A DNA stretch of 64,000 nucleotides from an uncultured Candidatus Saccharibacteria bacterium (GTDB lineage Bacteria > Patescibacteriota > Minisyncoccia > Phycocordibacterales > DATDWN01): positions 13,378 to 77,377 of the forward strand of contig CAYRRP010000003.1 of NCBI GenBank assembly GCA_964426735.1, given 5' to 3'. Numbering within the stretch: position 1 is the stretch's first letter; every line of letters begins with the position of its first letter. The notes beneath the pieces are model-generated. The model saw only the letters and a list, made by a program, of their open reading frames with translations. It did no database searches and had not been told where the DNA came from. Made by a program: the position numbers and the translations under genes. This document shows, piece by piece, positions 1 through 38,113 of this stretch.

Positions 1-119
1 TCTCCCTCGAATTTTACTCGTCGTCACTCGTAAAATTCTGGGCACCGGAATCGCGACAAGCGCTGCTGCACTTGTAGACCGCGATTCCGTTCGAGCCCCA
101 ACGTAAAGCTCCGCTTTAC
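1..119 (-). ncRNA. tRNA-linked structured repeat element, copy A (truncated by window edge)
   Basis: Minus-strand reading gives hairpin GUAAAGC-GGA-GCUUUAC, then CGGAAUCGCG..CGCGAUUCCGGUGCCCAGA, hairpin with loop GAGUGACGACGA, then AUUCGAGGGAGA. Shares core and architecture with copies at 2154, 19599, 34741. Lies downstream of tRNA-Asp on same strand. Confidence 0.45.
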
Positions 120-120
120 T

Positions 121-175
121 TCACTCGCGCAAATAAAAAAGACACCTTACGGTGCTTTTTATTTGCGCGAGTGAT
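121..175. terminator. 19-bp perfect inverted repeat (TCACTCGCGCAAATAAAAA / TTTTTATTTGCGCGAGTGA) with inner GCACC..GGTGC hairpin and T-tract
   Basis: Direct inspection. Right arm is the 3' acceptor end of the minus-strand tRNA-Asp, so the tRNA 3' end is duplicated in inverted orientation. Inner hairpin plus U-run resembles an intrinsic terminator. Confidence 0.5.
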
Positions 176-239
176 GGGGCTCGAACCCACGGCCTCGTCC
201 GTGACAGGGACGCGCTCTAACCAGCTGAGCTACACCCGC
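166..239 (-). tRNA. tRNA-Asp (anticodon GTC)
   Basis: Reverse complement GCGGGTGTAGCTCAGCTGGTTAGAGCGCGTCCCTGTCACGGACGAGGCCGTGGGTTCGAGCCCCATCACTCGCG: 7-bp acceptor, D-arm GCTC/GAGC, anticodon loop CTGTCAC, T-loop TTCGAGC. CCA not encoded. Confidence 0.85.
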
Positions 240-2110: not shown

Positions 2111-2138
2111 AAAAAAATACAACAGAGTTGTATTTTGG
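2111..2138 (+). terminator. hairpin AAAAATACAAC-AGAG-GTTGTATTTT
   Basis: 10-bp stem with T-run, immediately after tRNA-Met. Confidence 0.4.
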
Positions 2139-2153
2139 GATTTGCAAGACGGA

Positions 2154-2254
2154 GCGGGGTACCCATCGAGCACGATGGGTCGCGAGTCGTGGTCAGAGAA
2201 TTTTTCGAGTGACGACGAGAAAAATATCTGTGACCAAATCCCTGCCCCGCAACA
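2154..2254 (+). ncRNA. tRNA-linked structured repeat element, copy B, embedded in a tRNA-like frame
   Basis: Starts GCGGGGTA (same as tRNA-Met 5' end). Then hairpin CCCAT-CGAGCACG-ATGGG, core CGCGAGTCGTGGTCAGA, hairpin with loop GAGTGACGACGAG. Ends GTGACCAAATCCCTGCCCCGCAACA, a direct repeat of the tRNA-Met 3' end at 2083-2108. Confidence 0.45.
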
Positions 2255-19508: not shown

Positions 19509-19598
19509 GGAGGAATCGCATAGCGGCCTAGTGCAGCGGTTTACTAAACCGCCATACTCGAAAGAGTATCGAGAGTTCGAATCTCTCTTCCTCCGCCA
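19509..19598 (+). tRNA. type II (long variable arm) tRNA; anticodon loop TTACTAA parses as ACU (Ser-like, unusual A34)
   Basis: GGAGGAA acceptor, D-arm GCAT/GTGC, anticodon stem GCGGT/ACCGC with 7-nt loop TTACTAA, variable hairpin ATACTC-GAAA-GAGTAT, T-arm GAGAG-TTCGAAT-CTCTC, encoded CCA. A second Ser(GCU) tRNA exists at 19036. Confidence 0.6.
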
Positions 19599-30835: not shown

Positions 30836-30890
30836 CGAAAAATTCCTCGACCTGGACTCGAACCAGGGACCAATTTATTATGAAAATCTC
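30836..30890 (-). ncRNA. tRNA-like 3' fragment fused to partial copy (E) of the tRNA-linked element
   Basis: Minus-sense GATTTTCATAATAAATTGGTCCCTGGTTCGAGTCCAGGTCGAGGAATTTTTCGAGTGACCAC. Has a T-arm CCTGG-TTCGAGT-CCAGG, then GTCGAGG and GAATTTTTCGAGTGAC matching the element hairpin-3 sequence of copy B. Confidence 0.3.
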
Positions 30891-30894
30891 AGAG

Positions 30895-30966
30895 TCCACC
30901 CACCACGACTCGAACGTGGGACCCCCGAGGTATAAGCTCGATGCTCTAACCAACTGAGCTATGGGT
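30895..30966 (-). tRNA. tRNA-Ile (anticodon TAT)
   Basis: Reverse complement CCACCCATAGCTCAGTTGGTTAGAGCATCGAGCTTATACCTCGGGGGTCCCACGTTCGAGTCGTGGTGGGTGGA: acceptor CCACCCA/TGGGTGG, D-arm GCTC/GAGC, anticodon loop CTTATAC (UAU), T-arm CCACG-TTCGAGT-CGTGG. Confidence 0.65.
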
Positions 30967-31019
30967 GGACTCTATTATTTTCAAAACAAAATCTATATAA
31001 GCTCGAGTCACGAGTCAAA

Positions 31020-31117
31020 ATCTACTGACTTTGCTTGCAACCCCGCCTCGCACCGTCGTGCTCCGGCCTTGCGAGCCGATAACATCGACTCTCACTCTAC
31101 CAACTGAGCTACACGCG
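31020..31117 (-). ncRNA. tRNA-like 5' half (CCGCGTG-TA-GCTCAGTTGGTAGAGT...) with aberrant 3' portion; possible pseudo-tRNA or intron/insert-containing tRNA
   Basis: Canonical acceptor and D-arm at 31089-31117 (minus). No matching T-arm or acceptor 3' strand found within 100 nt. Confidence 0.25.
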
Positions 31118-33763: not shown

Positions 33764-34207
33764 ATGAGCCTTATTACAAACAAAAAAATCCATTTTAATT
33801 ATGAGATTACCGAGACAATACCTGCCGGTATTGAGCTTTTTGGCTTTGAAGTAAAATCATTACGTAATGGACAAGGTTCTCTCGACGGCTCATATGTGAC
33901 CGTGCGCGGCGGCGAAGCATTTGTGATCGGTATGCAAATCCCAGCATATCAAGTCGGAAATACACCGAAAGAGTACGATCCACTTCGTAATCGCCGACTC
34001 CTCCTCAACAAAAAGGAGATTGCTCGATTGGGAGAGATAGAATCACGAAAGGGATTGACAATAGCACCTATTTCAGTGTATAATAAAGGCAAGGTTTTGA
34101 AGGTAGATCTCGGTATTGCGACTGGTAAAAAGAAGTTTGATAAACGTGAGACTACAAAGAAACGAGAAGTCGACCGCAATACCCGAAGAGAGTTTGTTGA
34201 TCGATAG
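33764..34207 (+). CDS. smpB: SsrA-binding protein
   Basis: Conserved SmpB core (GIELFGFEVKSLR...NRRLLLNKKEI) and basic C-terminal tail. Confidence 0.85.
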   Translation: MSLITNKKIHFNYEITETIPAGIELFGFEVKSLRNGQGSLDGSYVTVRGGEAFVIGMQIPAYQVGNTPKEYDPLRNRRLLLNKKEIARLGEIESRKGLTIAPISVYNKGKVLKVDLGIATGKKKFDKRETTKKREVDRNTRREFVDR

Positions 34208-34245
34208 TAAAATTGAGTACATTGAAAAGAGAAACCCGAGTCCCA

Positions 34246-34702
34246 ACTTGCTCAGAATATTTCTGATCAAATTGGGGGTGCCAGGTTTTGACATAGTCTG
34301 CATCCGTTCGCGCACTACAGAGTTCCAGTCAACTCTTTAAACATCTGGAAACTATACGTGTAAACAATACTGTTGCACGAGCAAAAGCTTCTGTTTCTCC
34401 ATATTTTGGAGTTAACAACTTTGCTTTCTCTTACGCACGAGCTTAATTTAAGTTTCGTCCCTAGGAGGGGGTGATACATCCGATATCTCATACGATGTCT
34501 CATTCATATAACTGTGAGGTCCGGTCACTTCCCTGTTTCAGGTTGTGACCTAAAAAATGAAACTCGCCTTTTTCTTGTTTTGTTTGTTTTATAGAGAAAA
34601 AGTCTAAACGTTAAAACATTCTATGTAGTGTAGACCCGTTCGTATTCTCTCTATGCACGTGGCTTCGATGTCACCACTTCCACAAATTACAAAAAAAACT
34701 GC
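34246..34702 (+). ncRNA. ssrA: candidate tmRNA (ssrA), 3' end uncertain
   Basis: Immediately downstream of smpB. 5' end GGGGGUGCCAGGUUUUGACAUAG matches the tmRNA acceptor-plus-GGxUUCGAC consensus. Possible 3' strand CACUUCC+A gives G3-U70. T-loop-like UUCGAUG at 34669-34675. Possible tag ORF ...GVNNFAFSYARA-stop around 34405-34440. Confidence 0.45.
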
Positions 34703-34733
34703 TCAAGGCAGTTTTTTTGTAATTTGTGGAAGT
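34675..34733. terminator. 26-bp perfect inverted repeat with A8/T8 tracts and loop TCAAGG
   Basis: CTTCCACAAATTACAAAAAAAACTGC-TCAAGG-GCAGTTTTTTTTGTAATTTGTGGAAG. Left arm overlaps the putative tmRNA 3' end. Confidence 0.6.
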
Positions 34734-34740
34734 GAGCAAA

Positions 34741-34866
34741 GCGGAGCTTTGCGTGTGCATCGAAGCCAACGGAGCGAGGGCTCCCATCACCAGATGGGAC
34801 CGCGAGTTGGTGCCTAGACTTTTCCGAGCGACGGCGAGGAAAAAGTCGAAGGTTCAATGTCACCAT
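34741..34866 (+). ncRNA. tRNA-linked structured repeat element, copy D1
   Basis: Hairpin GCAAAGC-GGA-GCTTTGC (compensatory to copy A GTAAAGC/GCTTTAC), AACGGAGCGA, hairpin CCCATC-ACCA-GATGGG, core CGCGAGTTGGTGCCTAGA, stem with loop GAGCGACGGCGAG, AAGTCGAAGGTTCAATGTCACC. Confidence 0.4.
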
Positions 34867-34879
34867 TAAAAACATGTTT

Positions 34880-35068
34880 TGCGAGTGGTATTGAAACGGC
34901 GGAACGATTCCTGATTTAGCAAAATCAGGACGTGAGCCGGTGAGAAGTGATGTTATCACTTCGCAAGACCTTGCCAGAATTTTTCAGAGCAAAGCGAATG
35001 AAAAAATCGACAAGGTGTACTGTTCCTGTAAGGAAACCAGACACTCAGTCGAAGGTTCAATGCCACCA
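34880..35068 (+). ncRNA. degenerate tandem second copy (D2) of the element, with an insertion
   Basis: AACGGCGGAACGATTC, hairpin CCTGATTT-AGCA-AAATCAGG, CGTGAGCCGGTG..CCAGA with inserted hairpin AGTGAT-GTTA-TCACT. Ends CAGTCGAAGGTTCAATGCCACC. Confidence 0.35.
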
Positions 35069-35074
35069 CCTCTC

Positions 35075-35128
35075 TATCTATTGACAAAAGGTATTAGTGC
35101 TATATAATTTTACAAGGAAAGGATAATC
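35075..35128 (+). promoter_or_regulatory. consensus sigma70 promoter (TTGACA-16-TATAAT) and SD GGAAAGGA for P3
   Basis: CTATTGACAAAAGGTATTAGTGCTATATAATTTTACAAGGAAAGGATAATCC-ATG. Confidence 0.5.
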
Positions 35129-35129
35129 C

Positions 35130-35612
35130 ATGACTCAGAATTGGAACGACGCCGCTGCACGATATCAAGCTGCGAATCGTCAAAAGCTACGAGAACAACT
35201 GGTGCAGGCAACTCCCGTTGCATTACCGGCACCTAAGCCCGATAACTCCCTGGAAATCGCACAGGCTGCAACAGATCTACATACATTTATGAGATCTGAA
35301 GAAGGAAGATCTGCTCTCGCACTCCTACAAGAGAGCCGCCGGCATTTCATTTTTGGTGAAGATAGTGATGGTGGAGGTTATGGTACTGTCTACTATCTTG
35401 ATGGAACAGGTCTCCATCGCTCCATCGAAGCGATGGGTATGTGGGTTGCCTACAGCAAGGAGGTGGCAAAACCAAAAATAAGCAGTATTACTGCCCACGA
35501 GGCCGTGACTGCTGCTGTTGAGAATGGGCGGAAAAAACCCAGTGAAATCATCTCCTGGCTCCGCGCCGAACTCGACAAGATCGCCGCAGCCGCACCCCAA
35601 CCTGAACCCTAA
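35130..35612 (+). CDS. hypothetical protein P3 (160 aa), GC-rich, Ala/Pro-rich termini
   Basis: Elevated GC. Canonical promoter, SD and GC-rich terminator, unlike neighbouring housekeeping genes. Confidence 0.45.
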   Translation: MTQNWNDAAARYQAANRQKLREQLVQATPVALPAPKPDNSLEIAQAATDLHTFMRSEEGRSALALLQESRRHFIFGEDSDGGGYGTVYYLDGTGLHRSIEAMGMWVAYSKEVAKPKISSITAHEAVTAAVENGRKKPSEIISWLRAELDKIAAAAPQPEP

Positions 35613-35616
35613 CCGT

Positions 35617-35655
35617 TCCCCCCGCCGAAAGCCGCCGCGCTCTCGGCGGCTTTCT
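35617..35655 (+). terminator. GC-rich intrinsic terminator GAAAGCCGCCG-CGCTCT-CGGCGGCTTTC + TTTATT
   Basis: 11-bp GC stem followed by a T-run. Confidence 0.6.
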
Positions 35656-35718
35656 TTATTCCAAAACCTTTACATATCAAAAAAATACTGTATAGTATTT
35701 TAAGAAAGGATACTAAAT

Positions 35719-36447
35719 ATGAAATTCCTCTTAATCGGAGGACTTGGTGACAGTATCAAGTCATTTGACCCTTGGATGCGTGCACTAAACAAGAATCGAG
35801 GTGGGTACCGCTATATCCCGGTTACTGTATCCGGAGATACGGGGTTTTCCCACCGAATACAAACTCTGAAGAAAGCTTTGGATGAAGAGGTTGATCCTGT
35901 CTGCATCATCGGTCAGTCCGCCGGAGCACTGGCTGCACTTATGGTCGCAAGCGACAATCCAAAAATGGTAAAAGGAGTTATTGCGGTCAGTCCCGCAATG
36001 CCGAAGGGTATTTCACCTTTGAGTGTGCCCTTGCTTTCGGTCATGTGGAAGTATTACTATCACATGAGAATGAGTCATCTCATCGAGGTGACAGCAAAAG
36101 ACTATACAAAACTTGCTCTCAACAACGTTTCAAATCCAGACACCCTCTTGGCAAACCGCCAGAAAATTTCAGGACGAGAAGCGTATGAACTCACTGCTGA
36201 CTCACGTCCAGCACTTGCAGGAATACGGTTTCCCGTGGTGCATATATATGGGACAGAGGACAGATGGGTAAATCCCAGAGTACAAACGGAGTTGTTTAGA
36301 CTTCTTGGTGGATGCAAATCACTTATCACAGTATCTGGTGCTGGTCACATGCCTGCACATCACCCAGAAAAAGGTGCTATGGTGGTGAACGCAACACTCA
36401 ACAAACTCAAAGACCTTATTACCTTCTGTGGTGGAGCCAGGACATGA
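35719..36447 (+). CDS. alpha/beta-hydrolase (esterase/lipase-like)
   Basis: Nucleophile elbow IGQSAGAL (GxSxG). Late Asp/His (GAGHMPAHHPE). Own promoter TTTACA-16-TATAGT and SD AAGAAAGGA. Confidence 0.7.
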   Translation: MKFLLIGGLGDSIKSFDPWMRALNKNRGGYRYIPVTVSGDTGFSHRIQTLKKALDEEVDPVCIIGQSAGALAALMVASDNPKMVKGVIAVSPAMPKGISPLSVPLLSVMWKYYYHMRMSHLIEVTAKDYTKLALNNVSNPDTLLANRQKISGREAYELTADSRPALAGIRFPVVHIYGTEDRWVNPRVQTELFRLLGGCKSLITVSGAGHMPAHHPEKGAMVVNATLNKLKDLITFCGGART

Positions 36448-36526
36448 TGTCCTGGCTCGCTTTTTTTACTTGACCTAAGTTTTAATCTACTATATTATAG
36501 TACTATATCTTAGTAACATAAAAACT

Positions 36527-36745
36527 ATGACGACAATCACTGTACCCCTTAATACAGCACTTAATGAATTCATTAATGAACAAGTAAAGCTGGGTAAAGT
36601 ACCCAATAAAGCTGAGCTTGTTCGTGCTGCAATTATTAAATATAAGGAGGACGCACTCATTACTGAGCTCCTCAAGGCAAAACAAGAAGCAAAAGAAGGT
36701 AAACTCTTTACCGGAGATTTAGATGTACTTGCAAAGCGCTTTTAA
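36527..36745 (+). CDS. ribbon-helix-helix (CopG/ParD-like) antitoxin
   Basis: 72 aa. N-terminal beta-strand TTITVPLNTALNEF then two helices. Immediately upstream of a RelE/ParE-like gene with 9-nt spacing. Confidence 0.6.
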   Translation: MTTITVPLNTALNEFINEQVKLGKVPNKAELVRAAIIKYKEDALITELLKAKQEAKEGKLFTGDLDVLAKRF

Positions 36746-36754
36746 CAAGCCTCT

Positions 36755-37021
36755 ATGCTTACCATTTTTTACACTCCTAATTTTATTCGCAGATACAAAC
36801 ATCTTGATCCTGCTTTACAAGGCGAGGTTAAAGATAAGATTGAGTCATTTCGAACTATTAAGAATCATTTAAAGCTCAAGGTACACAAACTAAAAGGATC
36901 ACTCGATAATACGTACGCTTTTTCTGTGAACTTTAAGGTGCGAATTATTTTTGAATACCAGAAAAACAAGAAAAACATAAACCTGTTGTATGTTGGTAGT
37001 CATGATGAATTATATGCTTAA
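36755..37021 (+). CDS. RelE/ParE-family toxin
   Basis: 88 aa. Pattern KVHKLKGSLDNTYAFSVNFKVRIIFEY...LLYVGSHDELY typical of RelE/ParE/YoeB toxins. Confidence 0.65.
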   Translation: MLTIFYTPNFIRRYKHLDPALQGEVKDKIESFRTIKNHLKLKVHKLKGSLDNTYAFSVNFKVRIIFEYQKNKKNINLLYVGSHDELYA

Positions 37022-37040
37022 GAAGATGTATACTTAACCT

Positions 37041-37703
37041 ATGGAACATCTCAAAAGAAACATCACTATCACCCTCTTTGTTGCAGCTGCAGGACTTATT
37101 GGTTTTGTATTATTTTACACTCCACCTGCTCCACAAAAACAAAACAATATACTTCCCGGCGAACCACTACAGTACACCTACTCTTCAGAAGATATCTCTT
37201 TCACCTATCCTGCATTTTTAACATTAGATACAAAAGATAGCATAGTCTCACTTCACCATGAGATACCGTATGAAAACAATGGTGCTTGTGACATGGTAGG
37301 AGAATGGGTGTTACACAAAAATCTCACTGATTTTCATGTCACTATTCGTATTGCATCAACATCACTCGTACACACAGTACAACAAATGAGTCCATACATC
37401 CCTGAAGAAAATTTCGATGGTGATGTACTCAAGGTAAACCCTGGTTTTATTGATGCATTCGAAATCGGAGCACTCAAAGGATTTATGATTTACGAAGGAG
37501 CCGAAGGGTGTGGTATGACAACTTACTACTTCCCTGTTTCAAACAACCGAACACTTATGATTCAAAAAGAATCGATACAAGCTCTTTCGGGTGTACGTGG
37601 ACAAGAAGAAATACAGAGGATATTAAAAATACCTGGATCTATCGCACCAAGTGTTTCAAATAAAATTTTTGAGGAAATTATTACTTCACTTATAATCAAA
37701 TGA
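37041..37703 (+). CDS. secreted/membrane-anchored hypothetical protein (220 aa)
   Basis: N-terminal TM/signal (ITITLFVAAAGLIGFVLFY). No motif. Confidence 0.35.
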   Translation: MEHLKRNITITLFVAAAGLIGFVLFYTPPAPQKQNNILPGEPLQYTYSSEDISFTYPAFLTLDTKDSIVSLHHEIPYENNGACDMVGEWVLHKNLTDFHVTIRIASTSLVHTVQQMSPYIPEENFDGDVLKVNPGFIDAFEIGALKGFMIYEGAEGCGMTTYYFPVSNNRTLMIQKESIQALSGVRGQEEIQRILKIPGSIAPSVSNKIFEEIITSLIIK

Positions 37704-38113
37704 TGCCTTTATTTTTTAGTGCTCTTATGTTTATTTCTTGTATCGTAGGCTACGGTGCAGTAATTGCAATCGACACTGCTGGGCTTTTTTGGATTTTTAA
37801 AAAACGCTCAATGGATTTTGTCTATCAAATGACCGGTATTACCCAGCCACTGATCTGGCTTGGGTGGAGCGGTATCACAATCGGTCTCCTTGGCACCCTT
37901 TCTTTTACTCCTCTTACCCCACTTACCACCTACCAGTTCATCCTCCTCGGTATTCTTGGTCTCAATGGTATATTTTTACAGATAACCAAGAAAAAACTTA
38001 ACCTCACCAATCCTTCGCAAAAACTCCCCATTTTCTCGATATTTCTCGCAACTGTCATATCTCAAACAAGCTGGATTACTTTCCTTGCTCTCCAGTTCAT
38101 ACGCACTCTGTAA
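37700..38113 (+). CDS. polytopic membrane hypothetical protein (137 aa)
   Basis: Four hydrophobic helices. Overlaps previous gene by 4 nt. Confidence 0.35.
   Translation: MMPLFFSALMFISCIVGYGAVIAIDTAGLFWIFKKRSMDFVYQMTGITQPLIWLGWSGITIGLLGTLSFTPLTPLTTYQFILLGILGLNGIFLQITKKKLNLTNPSQKLPIFSIFLATVISQTSWITFLALQFIRTL

Follow-up and report, generated by a model that had tools for sequence, protein, structure and literature searches.

Transfer RNA (tRNA) and transfer-messenger RNA (tmRNA) genes are classic landing sites for mobile DNA, and to our knowledge the agents known to use them each carry their own integrase and target one gene. The stretch analysed here (the window: 64,000 nucleotides of contig CAYRRP010000003.1 from an uncultured Candidatus Saccharibacteria bacterium) contains the tmRNA gene ssrA behind smpB and, behind ssrA, two structured elements, D1 and D2, that belong to a family of small units trailing tRNA and tmRNA genes in Patescibacteria. 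An earlier, sequence-only reading of this locus had noticed a tmRNA 3'-end-like motif in three copies, and interpreted the repeats as nested attachment-site duplications left by successive integrations into ssrA. The features from smpB to the end of D2 are:

33764 to 34207, plus strand: smpB, encoding the SsrA-binding protein (NCBIfam SmpB, 160 bits against a cut-off of 130)
34274 to 34685, plus strand: ssrA, the tmRNA gene, one-piece and full length (Rfam RF00023, 61.3 bits against a gathering score of 47, model positions 1-374)
34655 to 34676, plus strand: motif copy 1, read from the sequence, the tmRNA's own T-arm and the start of its acceptor 3' strand
34675 to 34734, no strand assigned: long near-perfect palindrome, terminator-like and bidirectional (inverted repeats I1 and I3; terminator-like site at 34692-34718 on both strands)
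34736 to 34752, plus strand: small hairpin GCAAAGC-GGA-GCTTTGC, with the anti-acceptor segment of D1 on one side and its anti-T-arm segment on the other
34753 to 34871, plus strand: element D1 (covariance model R1, 84.3 bits, E 1.5e-24), containing the tmRNA T-arm in inverted copy (34755-34767), two arms, S3/hpA (about 34766-34812) and S2/P2 (about 34811-34852), and the direct copy (34844-34865)
34844 to 34865, plus strand: motif copy 2, read from the sequence, the direct copy of D1
about 34872 to 35072, plus strand: element D2, a long composite form (partial R1 match at 34883-34986, 42.5 bits, covering the 5' half), containing GTGGTATTGAAAC as its inverted copy (34885-34897), then the S3/hpA arm (34897-34940), one additional hairpin (34944-34962), a second conserved module that includes a hairpin with a UGUAA loop (34956-35042) and, last, the direct copy (35047-35068)
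35047 to 35068, plus strand: motif copy 3, read from the sequence, the direct copy of D2

The smpB and ssrA pair is ordinary. Both genes had been placed correctly before, the first being borne out by its NCBIfam score and the second by the Rfam tmRNA model, and the 5' end proposed for the tmRNA, GGGGGTGCCAGGTTTTGAC, is right, although it lies 66 nt past the smpB stop codon and not the 39 nt given. The bacterium is a Paceibacteria-like member of the Patescibacteria, and its nearest relatives by SmpB are three metagenome-assembled genomes (MAGs), L001 and L002 (95% identity each) and L003 (86%). Whereas Rfam finds ssrA, ARAGORN, one of the programs that had been suggested for defining the gene, misses it, likely because the T-arm at 34659-34674 (GTGGC-TTCGAT-GTCAC) has a loop of 6 nt rather than 7. 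The same 6-nt loop (TTCGAT) occurs in the tmRNA of this species group, including the L001 and L003 equivalents, which Rfam also calls and ARAGORN also fails to call. The acceptor stem, as read from the sequence, comprises 7 bp (GGGGGUG/CACUUCC) with G3.U70, and the tag frame at 34381-34446 encodes AKASVSPYFGVNNFAFSYARA, ends in a stop codon and resembles the tags that ARAGORN reads in relatives. Compared with tmRNA (RF00023) and SmpB generally, the pair has the full-length match, the tRNA-like domain, the tag frame and the adjacent smpB in common, whereas the sole differences are the 6-nt T-loop and the lack of an encoded CCA.

All three of the related 3'-end motifs are present. The two downstream copies share the 20-mer TCGAAGGTTCAATGYCACCA exactly (34846-34865 and 35049-35068; 0.01 expected by chance), and the tmRNA's own T-arm and 3' end resembles this motif with 68% identity over 22 nt. 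The palindrome behind the tmRNA has the acceptor 3' strand as its left arm, and the right arm finishes with GTGGAAGTG, which is antisense to this strand; the small hairpin that follows has equivalents in relatives and in other element copies. D1 begins 68 nt past the tmRNA end, with D2 directly behind it, and the two elements can be aligned to one another along their whole length. Within D1, the inverted copy at 34758-34768 is 100% complementary to the tmRNA at 34660-34670, and the direct copies of both elements (TTCAATGTCACCA in D1, TTCAATGCCACCAC in D2) are partly decayed. RNAfold gives -44.8 kcal/mol for D1 (z -3.2), folded as a three-way junction, and -72.1 kcal/mol for D2 (z -7.2), and in the single-sequence folds of both the closing stem is formed by the inverted copy paired with the direct copy. 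Parts of D2 also have homologues away from ssrA in related genomes. Each extra motif thus forms the 3' end of one of these neighbouring structured elements, and the earlier description stands in part: the motifs are displaced, nested copies of the tmRNA 3' end, but they are not bare attachment scars, being instead the ends of members of a conserved and covarying element family.

This family was defined by the covariance model R1, which was built from 15 D1-like copies and searched against the window together with 80 related Patescibacteria SmpB loci, 1.25 Mb in total. The search set contains 50 matches, five of which are in the window. The copies there that lie behind tRNA genes are:

1 to 103, minus strand: copy behind tRNA-Asp (165-239, minus strand), R1 59.6 bits, its 3' end cut by the window edge
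2133 to 2253, plus strand: copy behind tRNA-Met (2036-2107), R1 100.1 bits
19656 to 19776, plus strand: copy behind tRNA-Ser(ACU) (19509-19598), R1 93 bits

At the tRNA-Met copy, an exact 19-nt direct repeat, AAATCCCTGCCCCGCAACA, is found at 2087-2105 and 2236-2254. The 5' module of the family (CGGAGCG...CGCGAG) occurs four times in the window, against 0.05 expected, always closely behind a tRNA-type gene (once each for tRNA-Met and tRNA-Ser(ACU), two times for the tmRNA), and both D1 and the 5' half of D2 carry the family arms S3/hpA and S2/P2, with the junctions GGAGCG...CGCGAG...GGUGCC/GGGGUC.

Two of the tRNA loci in the window have peculiarities of their own. The tRNA-Ser(ACU) gene (19509-19598, plus strand) is an ARAGORN call that falls below the Rfam tRNA threshold; it adjoins tRNA-Ser(GCU) and is conserved in at least seven related loci and in two metagenome loci. 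An A at position 34 is unusual in a serine tRNA. Just 3' of tRNA-Ile(UAU) (30894-30968), at about 30840-30893 on the minus strand, there is a diverged copy of the tRNA-Ile T-arm and 3' end, GGTCCCTGGTTCGAGTCCAGGTCGAGG, which has compensatory T-stem changes and is followed by a truncated P2-like hairpin; this site is probably a decayed unit of the D-element family. A weak R1 match lies at 30988-31082 on the minus strand.

Secondary structure is conserved throughout the family. Applied to a MAFFT alignment, RNAalifold recovers the helices S3, inner, hpA and P2, and 17 of 18 pairs show compensatory changes. In the 50-sequence R1 alignment, 83.7% of cells are paired (55.2% when shuffled) and the covariation score reaches 0.55, whereas shuffled alignments give 0.16 and sliding the partners gives 0.13 at most; double changes occur in 35 of 35 pairs. 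This alignment was fitted to the model, such that its figures lean towards structure, although the margins are still large. A second module makes up the 3' half of D2. It comprises helix S2, hairpin P2, a GUACUG linker and a hairpin of 4-5 bp whose loop, UGUAA, is invariant, and it recurs at 16 other places, either alone or linked to tRNA genes. In a plain MAFFT alignment this module is 92.6% paired (69% when shuffled), with a covariation score of 0.41 against 0.09. The invariant loops and junctions of the family are GGAGCG, CGCGAG, GAGYGACGRCGAG and UGUAA. Neither Rfam nor the literature searched holds a description of this family: at permissive thresholds (E<=10), no Rfam match was obtained for D1 and D2, a stand-alone second module or a fresh metagenome copy, the scan returning just tmRNA, tRNAs and hairpin noise.

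The stand-alone second modules are about 90 nt long and have a covarying hairpin before them (L013, 19094-19180; L002, 4526-4612; and, on the minus strand, L042, 13022-13108, and L019, 15400-15486). They are laid out as GCAAGACCUUG, a hairpin, AAGGUGUACUG and then the UGUAA-loop hairpin; some have their own terminator, and several lie near tRNA-Ile.

The association with tRNA genes extends well beyond the window. In the SmpB loci, most R1 matches either trail a same-strand tRNA or tmRNA gene, at a distance of 26-80 nt from its 3' end, or stand in tandem behind a first unit, and many end in an exact 11-21-nt copy of the 3' end of the upstream gene; the orientation of the element is always that of the gene. 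A metagenome scan with a 23-base gapped pattern gave at least 120 stretches, and nhmmer confirmed 113 of the 120 listed, yielding at least 141 elements. Among the 141 metagenome elements listed, 121 follow a tRNA gene, with about 40 anticodons and all amino-acid classes represented. Overall, a body of about 85 nt with the same covarying helices and invariant loops is present at more than 150 independent loci, in units of 110-200 bp.

The architecture of these units is directly visible in fresh copies, in which the gene with its tail is followed by a gap of 18-80 nt, where a small or terminator-like hairpin lies, and then by the tail in exact inverted copy, the conserved two-hairpin body and the tail in exact direct copy. 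The inverted segment corresponds to gene positions 53 to 66-76 and always ends in ..TCGAAC; the direct segment starts at gene position 56/57, extends through the 3' end and takes in 0-8 nt more. On average, the longest exact match in inverted orientation measures 11.2 nt, compared with 6.2 nt in a control in which tRNAs were exchanged among loci. Where the gene has no CCA, the copies have none either (the window tRNA-Met copy, L077 and L181), and they therefore derive from the gene, not from the mature tRNA. An origin by reverse transcription of mature tRNA, by analogy with primer-binding sites, was rejected since CCA is absent from both copies where it is not gene-encoded. Whole units also occur as exact tandems, with two copies in L184, three in L191 and two in L166, and two contigs of the same strain (L158 and L159) have an identical layout with no micro-variation.

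In one locus, L079 (958-1790), a 156-aa open reading frame (ORF) separates the tmRNA from a D-type element, which ends by repeating 21 nt of the tmRNA tail exactly; a short remnant of an older tail, AATCTCCACAA, comes before the element's palindrome. Hence cargo can sit inside a unit, although the arrangement in the window differs. In 9 of the 113 metagenome loci (for example L243, 487-2067, minus strand), an ORF within 3 kb of the element has an N-terminus that we take to resemble CCA-adding enzyme/poly(A) polymerase, and in seven a small ORF within the same distance presumably resembles the YraN-type (UPF0102) nucleases; neither is separated from ordinary synteny with particular tRNA genes.

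Differences between alleles of the tail bear on the order in which these units arrived. The tmRNA T-arm in the window is now of the TTCGAT type; the direct copies of D1 and D2 are TTCAAT, as in the L002 tmRNA, and the D2 inverted copy, which reads GTTTCAATACCAC when reverse-complemented, is then identical to the T-arm of the L002 tmRNA. In both D1 and D2 the inverted copy fits the upstream, incoming allele, and the direct copy fits an older allele. This split disfavours a simple target-site duplication, and suggests instead that the moving block comprises the new tail, hairpin, inverted copy and body, and that the direct copy is the displaced old tail. The tracing fits successive nested events of the kind that had been proposed previously, and places the newest nearest to the tmRNA. 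D1 is missing from L002, with precise boundaries. Behind tRNA-Ser(ACU), L055 has an extra proximal unit, the direct repeat of which runs seamlessly into the flank that lies directly behind the tRNA in the window; the distal unit shared between L055 and the window is about 92% identical (hand count), with a compensatory stem change, in genomes whose SmpB proteins are only 67% identical. Across 46 cases in which the direct repeat has decayed, the inverted copy still fits the upstream gene in 31, and fits the decayed repeat better in 10.

Strand asymmetry within the hairpins indicates which strand acts. When the two variable hairpins were folded in 114 distinct copies, the sense strand gave 57 G.U pairs against 2 A.C, compared with 37 against 19 for the antisense, and hence the active form is of sense polarity, a result that does not tell RNA and top-strand DNA apart. 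This per-sequence folding replaced a strand count on the model-fitted alignment, which was uninformative (73 G.U against 49 A.C).

Downstream of D2, the interval between ssrA and infC contains accessory genes:

35081 to 35654, plus strand: P3 cassette, with a consensus promoter-like site at 35081-35108 (12/12 positions), an ORF at 35130-35612 (160 aa) and a terminator at 35627-35654; no family match
35669 to 36458, plus strand: alpha/beta-hydrolase cassette, with a promoter-like site at 35669-35696, an ORF at 35719-36447 and a terminator at 36434-36458
36527 to 37021, plus strand: putative type II toxin-antitoxin pair, a ParD/ribbon-helix-helix (RHH)-like gene at 36527-36745 and a RelE/ParE-like gene at 36755-37021
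37041 to 38113, plus strand: two ORFs without family match, at 37041-37703 (220 aa) and 37700-38113 (137 aa)

The earlier assignment of the hydrolase is upheld by Pfam (Hydrolase_4, 50 bits against 27; Abhydrolase_6, 43.2 against 26.3), and P3, the 220-aa ORF and the 137-aa ORF have no family in the Pfam, PHROG and NCBIfam scans. The proposed ParD/RelE pair remains putative: the toxin is RelE-like by a full-length match to PHROG 1213 (43.3 bits), and the antitoxin-toxin layout fits, but the Pfam and NCBIfam scores fall just short of their cut-offs (RelE/StbE, 24.2 against 27.9) and the partner has weak matches only (ParD, 21.5 against 46.2). The last two ORFs had been taken for membrane proteins, which suits the strongly hydrophobic translation of the second but not that of the first. 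The suggestion that these genes have their own promoters agrees, for most of them, with the consensus-like sites before P3, the hydrolase and the antitoxin gene (the last at 36470-36498). Terminator-like hairpins follow the tmRNA, P3 and the hydrolase.

Comparison with relatives showed gene content between ssrA and infC to be variable even among genomes with 86-95% identical SmpB. Thus L001 lacks the 3' half of D1, D2 and P3; L002 lacks D1 and the toxin-antitoxin pair, retains P3 and has an extra small ORF; and L003 has two other ORFs and lacks the toxin-antitoxin pair. The 137-aa ORF is conserved beside infC in all three. Over 35 syntenic loci the distance from smpB to infC ranges from 643 to 7963 nt (median 3035), and the interval in relatives contains a restriction-modification pair, Fic, a Panacea antitoxin, a HATPase_c_3 protein and a LexA-like gene. 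Such a region fits the known hotspots at tRNA and tmRNA genes (bioRxiv 10.1101/2020.12.28.424599). The interval is a variable accessory hotspot, but it is not delimited by the tail repeats. The sequence-only reading had cast these as the left and right attachment sites of a gene island, yet every accessory gene is downstream of the two repeats, and the stretch from P3 to infC has no additional copy.

Taken together, we consider the odds to be even that the D units are selfish DNA-level elements in which a folded hairpin mimics the target. The same balance applies to D1 and D2 being stacked members of a structured family that inserts into the T-loop-to-3'-end segment of tRNA and tmRNA genes in Patescibacteria. 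An incoming unit would supply a new tail, keeping the gene intact, and the old tail would be shifted downstream as a direct repeat, later to decay. Each new insertion at the intact gene would push older units outward, and recombination between the gene tail and the direct copy could duplicate or delete whole units. In the window, the tmRNA would thereby have come to be followed by D1, the younger unit, and then by D2, the older, producing the triplicated motif. The acting form would be a single strand of tRNA-sense polarity, RNA or top-strand DNA. Our favoured candidate is a folded DNA hairpin, with a stem reproducing the target gene segment, that may be served by a trans-acting recombinase or transposase not encoded nearby. 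DNA is favoured because terminators are mixed, because D1 and D2 lie behind the tmRNA terminator without a predicted promoter, and because the distribution is patchy, with remnants. More tentatively, this may be an undescribed mobile or semi-mobile unit of the candidate phyla radiation (CPR) that recognises any tRNA or tmRNA gene by base-pairing of its built-in antisense copy of the T-loop-to-3'-end segment. Such nucleic-acid guidance would cover both a folded single-strand DNA attachment site and a guide-plus-scaffold RNA, either one served by an enzyme.

Several observations weigh against mobility of this kind. No recombinase or transposase was found in the window (by motif scan only) or among the island ORFs, nor was any enriched near the 113 listed metagenome copies. 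The tyrosine-recombinase motif has no match in the 64-kb window, and its sole match in the 80 loci (L024, 12535-13419) is not adjacent to an element; serine recombinases are absent from the six island ORFs, the rest of the window not having been searched for them. Neither the Pfam, PHROG and NCBIfam scans of the island ORFs, nor a Pfam scan of ten ORFs from the intervals of relatives, revealed an integrase, and clustering the 614 ORFs within 3 kb of the listed metagenome copies gave just housekeeping families and spurious ORFs overlapping the element. No free, circular or phage-borne form was found in IMG/VR with three exact patterns: the 20-mer had 0 hits, the gapped pattern had 74 (an estimated chance level, none matching the family hidden Markov model) and the loop pattern had three, unconfirmed. 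The reading offers no account of how a single family comes by matching inverted and direct copies for about 40 tRNAs. Differences in presence and absence could reflect deletion between repeats, not insertion, and the sense-strand bias and conserved loops are equally expected of a transcribed RNA. Moreover, the window tRNA-Met copy, L233 and others have no convincing terminator between gene and element; a terminator-like hairpin occupies the gap in only 41 of 106 copies, and follows the element in 23 of 106.

These last points would suit functional RNAs produced together with the tRNA or tmRNA or beside it, which we regard as a possible but rather unlikely explanation. Such RNAs would have a guide-plus-scaffold layout, in which 12-20 nt antisense to the T-loop, T-stem and acceptor 3' strand are attached to a conserved scaffold that binds protein. 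They might act on the cognate tRNA or its gene, for example through processing, modification, decoy activity or regulation, and the direct copy would either serve to mask the guide in cis or be a by-product. Strongly covarying helices, invariant loops and junctions, the G.U over A.C bias towards the tRNA-sense strand and the constant orientation relative to the gene are all as expected of an RNA. So too are the strong terminator that lies behind the element, and not the gene, in several copies (window tRNA-Met, L196, L182 and L236), the retention of the antisense segment even where the direct copy has decayed, and the identity and compensatory change in the unit shared with L055 despite the divergence of SmpB. 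However, D1 and D2 are behind a strong tmRNA terminator with no promoter-like site predicted for them, and the same 41 of 106 copies have a terminator-like hairpin between gene and element. Furthermore, only a minority of orthologous tRNA-Ile and tmRNA loci carry an element, and degenerate remnants exist, so the element is not essential; G.U makes up only about 3% of pairs; and the decaying direct repeats and nested arrays need DNA-level insertion anyway.

We think it improbable that a classical integrase-borne island entered the ssrA 3' end, with the motifs as its attachment sites and the hydrolase, the toxin-antitoxin pair and their neighbours as its cargo. The 3' ends of tRNA and tmRNA genes are well-known integration sites, at which nested repeats accumulate with the newest nearest the gene (bioRxiv 10.1101/2020.12.28.424599). 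The variable length of the interval to infC, the restriction-modification, Fic, Panacea-antitoxin and HATPase genes that it holds in relatives, and a guanine-cytosine content of 0.46-0.53 over P3 and the hydrolase, against 0.35-0.44 nearby, would all accord with an island. Yet both extra motifs precede every island gene, no motif or R1 match occurs from P3 to infC, and the integrase that had been sought is missing from the island ORFs, the window motif scan and the tested ORFs of the relatives' intervals. Copies without cargo are instead found behind tRNA-Met, tRNA-Ser and tRNA-Asp in the window and behind about 40 tRNA species elsewhere, a range not expected of one site-specific integrase. 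It is more improbable still that there is no element at all, the repeats having arisen through neutral, palindrome-driven replication errors (for example fold-back or template switching) at the terminator that follows the gene. Long palindromes taking in the last bases of the gene are indeed common behind these genes, a double template switch would give a tail, an inverted copy and a direct copy, and the exact tandem units show the region to be prone to recombination. Nevertheless, a covarying body of about 85 nt between the copies at more than 150 independent loci is beyond random errors, and the inverted copy is selectively retained; the conserved body brings this explanation close to being refuted.

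Set against described systems, the D elements combine traits of several. Successive integrations at tRNA and tmRNA genes leave nested partial-tRNA repeats, and both the D elements and the tRNA/tmRNA integrative elements (those of phage-type tyrosine integrases, and the Prochlorococcus tycheposons) stack with the newest nearest the gene and with decaying remnants (bioRxiv 10.1101/2020.12.28.424599). On the reading favoured here, both also target the 3' part of the gene, keep it intact by means of an element-borne tail, leave the old tail as a direct repeat and have a variable accessory region beside ssrA. However, the units described here measure only 110-200 bp, lack an integrase and usually lack cargo, and one conserved body, with an extra inverted target copy and a covarying two-hairpin fold, serves about 40 tRNA species.

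Integron attC sites and the CTX-phage attP(+), the latter used by XerCD, are conserved in structure over sequence, measure about 60-150 nt and are active on one strand. The attP(+) hairpin stem reproduces the chromosomal target as a duplex, and with folded single-strand sites of this type arrays grow at a fixed site and ORF-less units exist. The D elements are alike in structural conservation, size, one-strand activity, target-copying stem, array growth and the existence of units without an ORF. They differ in that no IntI gene, GTTRRRY core or dif-like site was seen, that the stem is a copy of the tRNA gene, GGTTCAATG, rather than an R''/R' core (RYYYAAC / GTTRRRY), that the target is the tRNA T-loop/acceptor segment, and that the body is branched, with two arms and invariant loops. 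IS200/IS605-type elements, with their miniature derivatives, insert beside a short motif in a strand- and orientation-specific manner, and have subterminal hairpins and omega/right-end RNAs. The corresponding motif here would be the GGTTC of the T-loop, and both systems have subterminal hairpins and a structured scaffold followed by about 20 nt equal to the flank. In contrast, no TnpA or TnpB gene is found near the D elements, no ORF family other than housekeeping genes recurs at the 113 listed loci, a search confined to the neighbourhood of the elements, and the elements have no match in Rfam to omega RNA or other families. Moreover, the element here restores the target beside the motif, and hence a nuclease guide would be self-targeting.

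The sequence-only reading was therefore partly right, in recognising nested tail duplications at an insertion hotspot, but missed the family of hairpin elements trailing tRNA and tmRNA genes. What distinguishes this family is a tiny, integrase-less unit defined by structure, found in Patescibacteria behind tmRNA genes and tRNA genes of about 40 anticodons, and tailored to each gene by copies of its tail. If mobile, these units would find their targets by base-pairing or by hairpin mimicry, using an enzyme yet to be named, and could explain how reduced genomes build variable regions beside ssrA. If they are RNAs, they would constitute a widespread new class of non-coding RNA tied to tRNA biology in a large and poorly understood branch of bacteria. 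In either case they merit annotation, as they are now read as intergenic DNA, spurious ORFs or attachment-site scars.

Two further repeats were observed. A conserved terminator-plus-promoter unit, CCGCCGAAAGCCGCCG...CGGCGGCTTTC...CCTTTACNTAT...TATAGTATTTT, separates several single-gene cassettes downstream of ssrA (window, 35615-35718; L001, 4345-4450; L002, 8345-8455 and 8705-8760; L003, 4590-4650). In addition, a 37-nt tandem repeat, AATATTTGCTTAACTAACCAAAACAGCTACCCTCTGC, is present in about 2.5 copies at positions 241-335 of the window, between tRNA-Asp and tRNA-Met.

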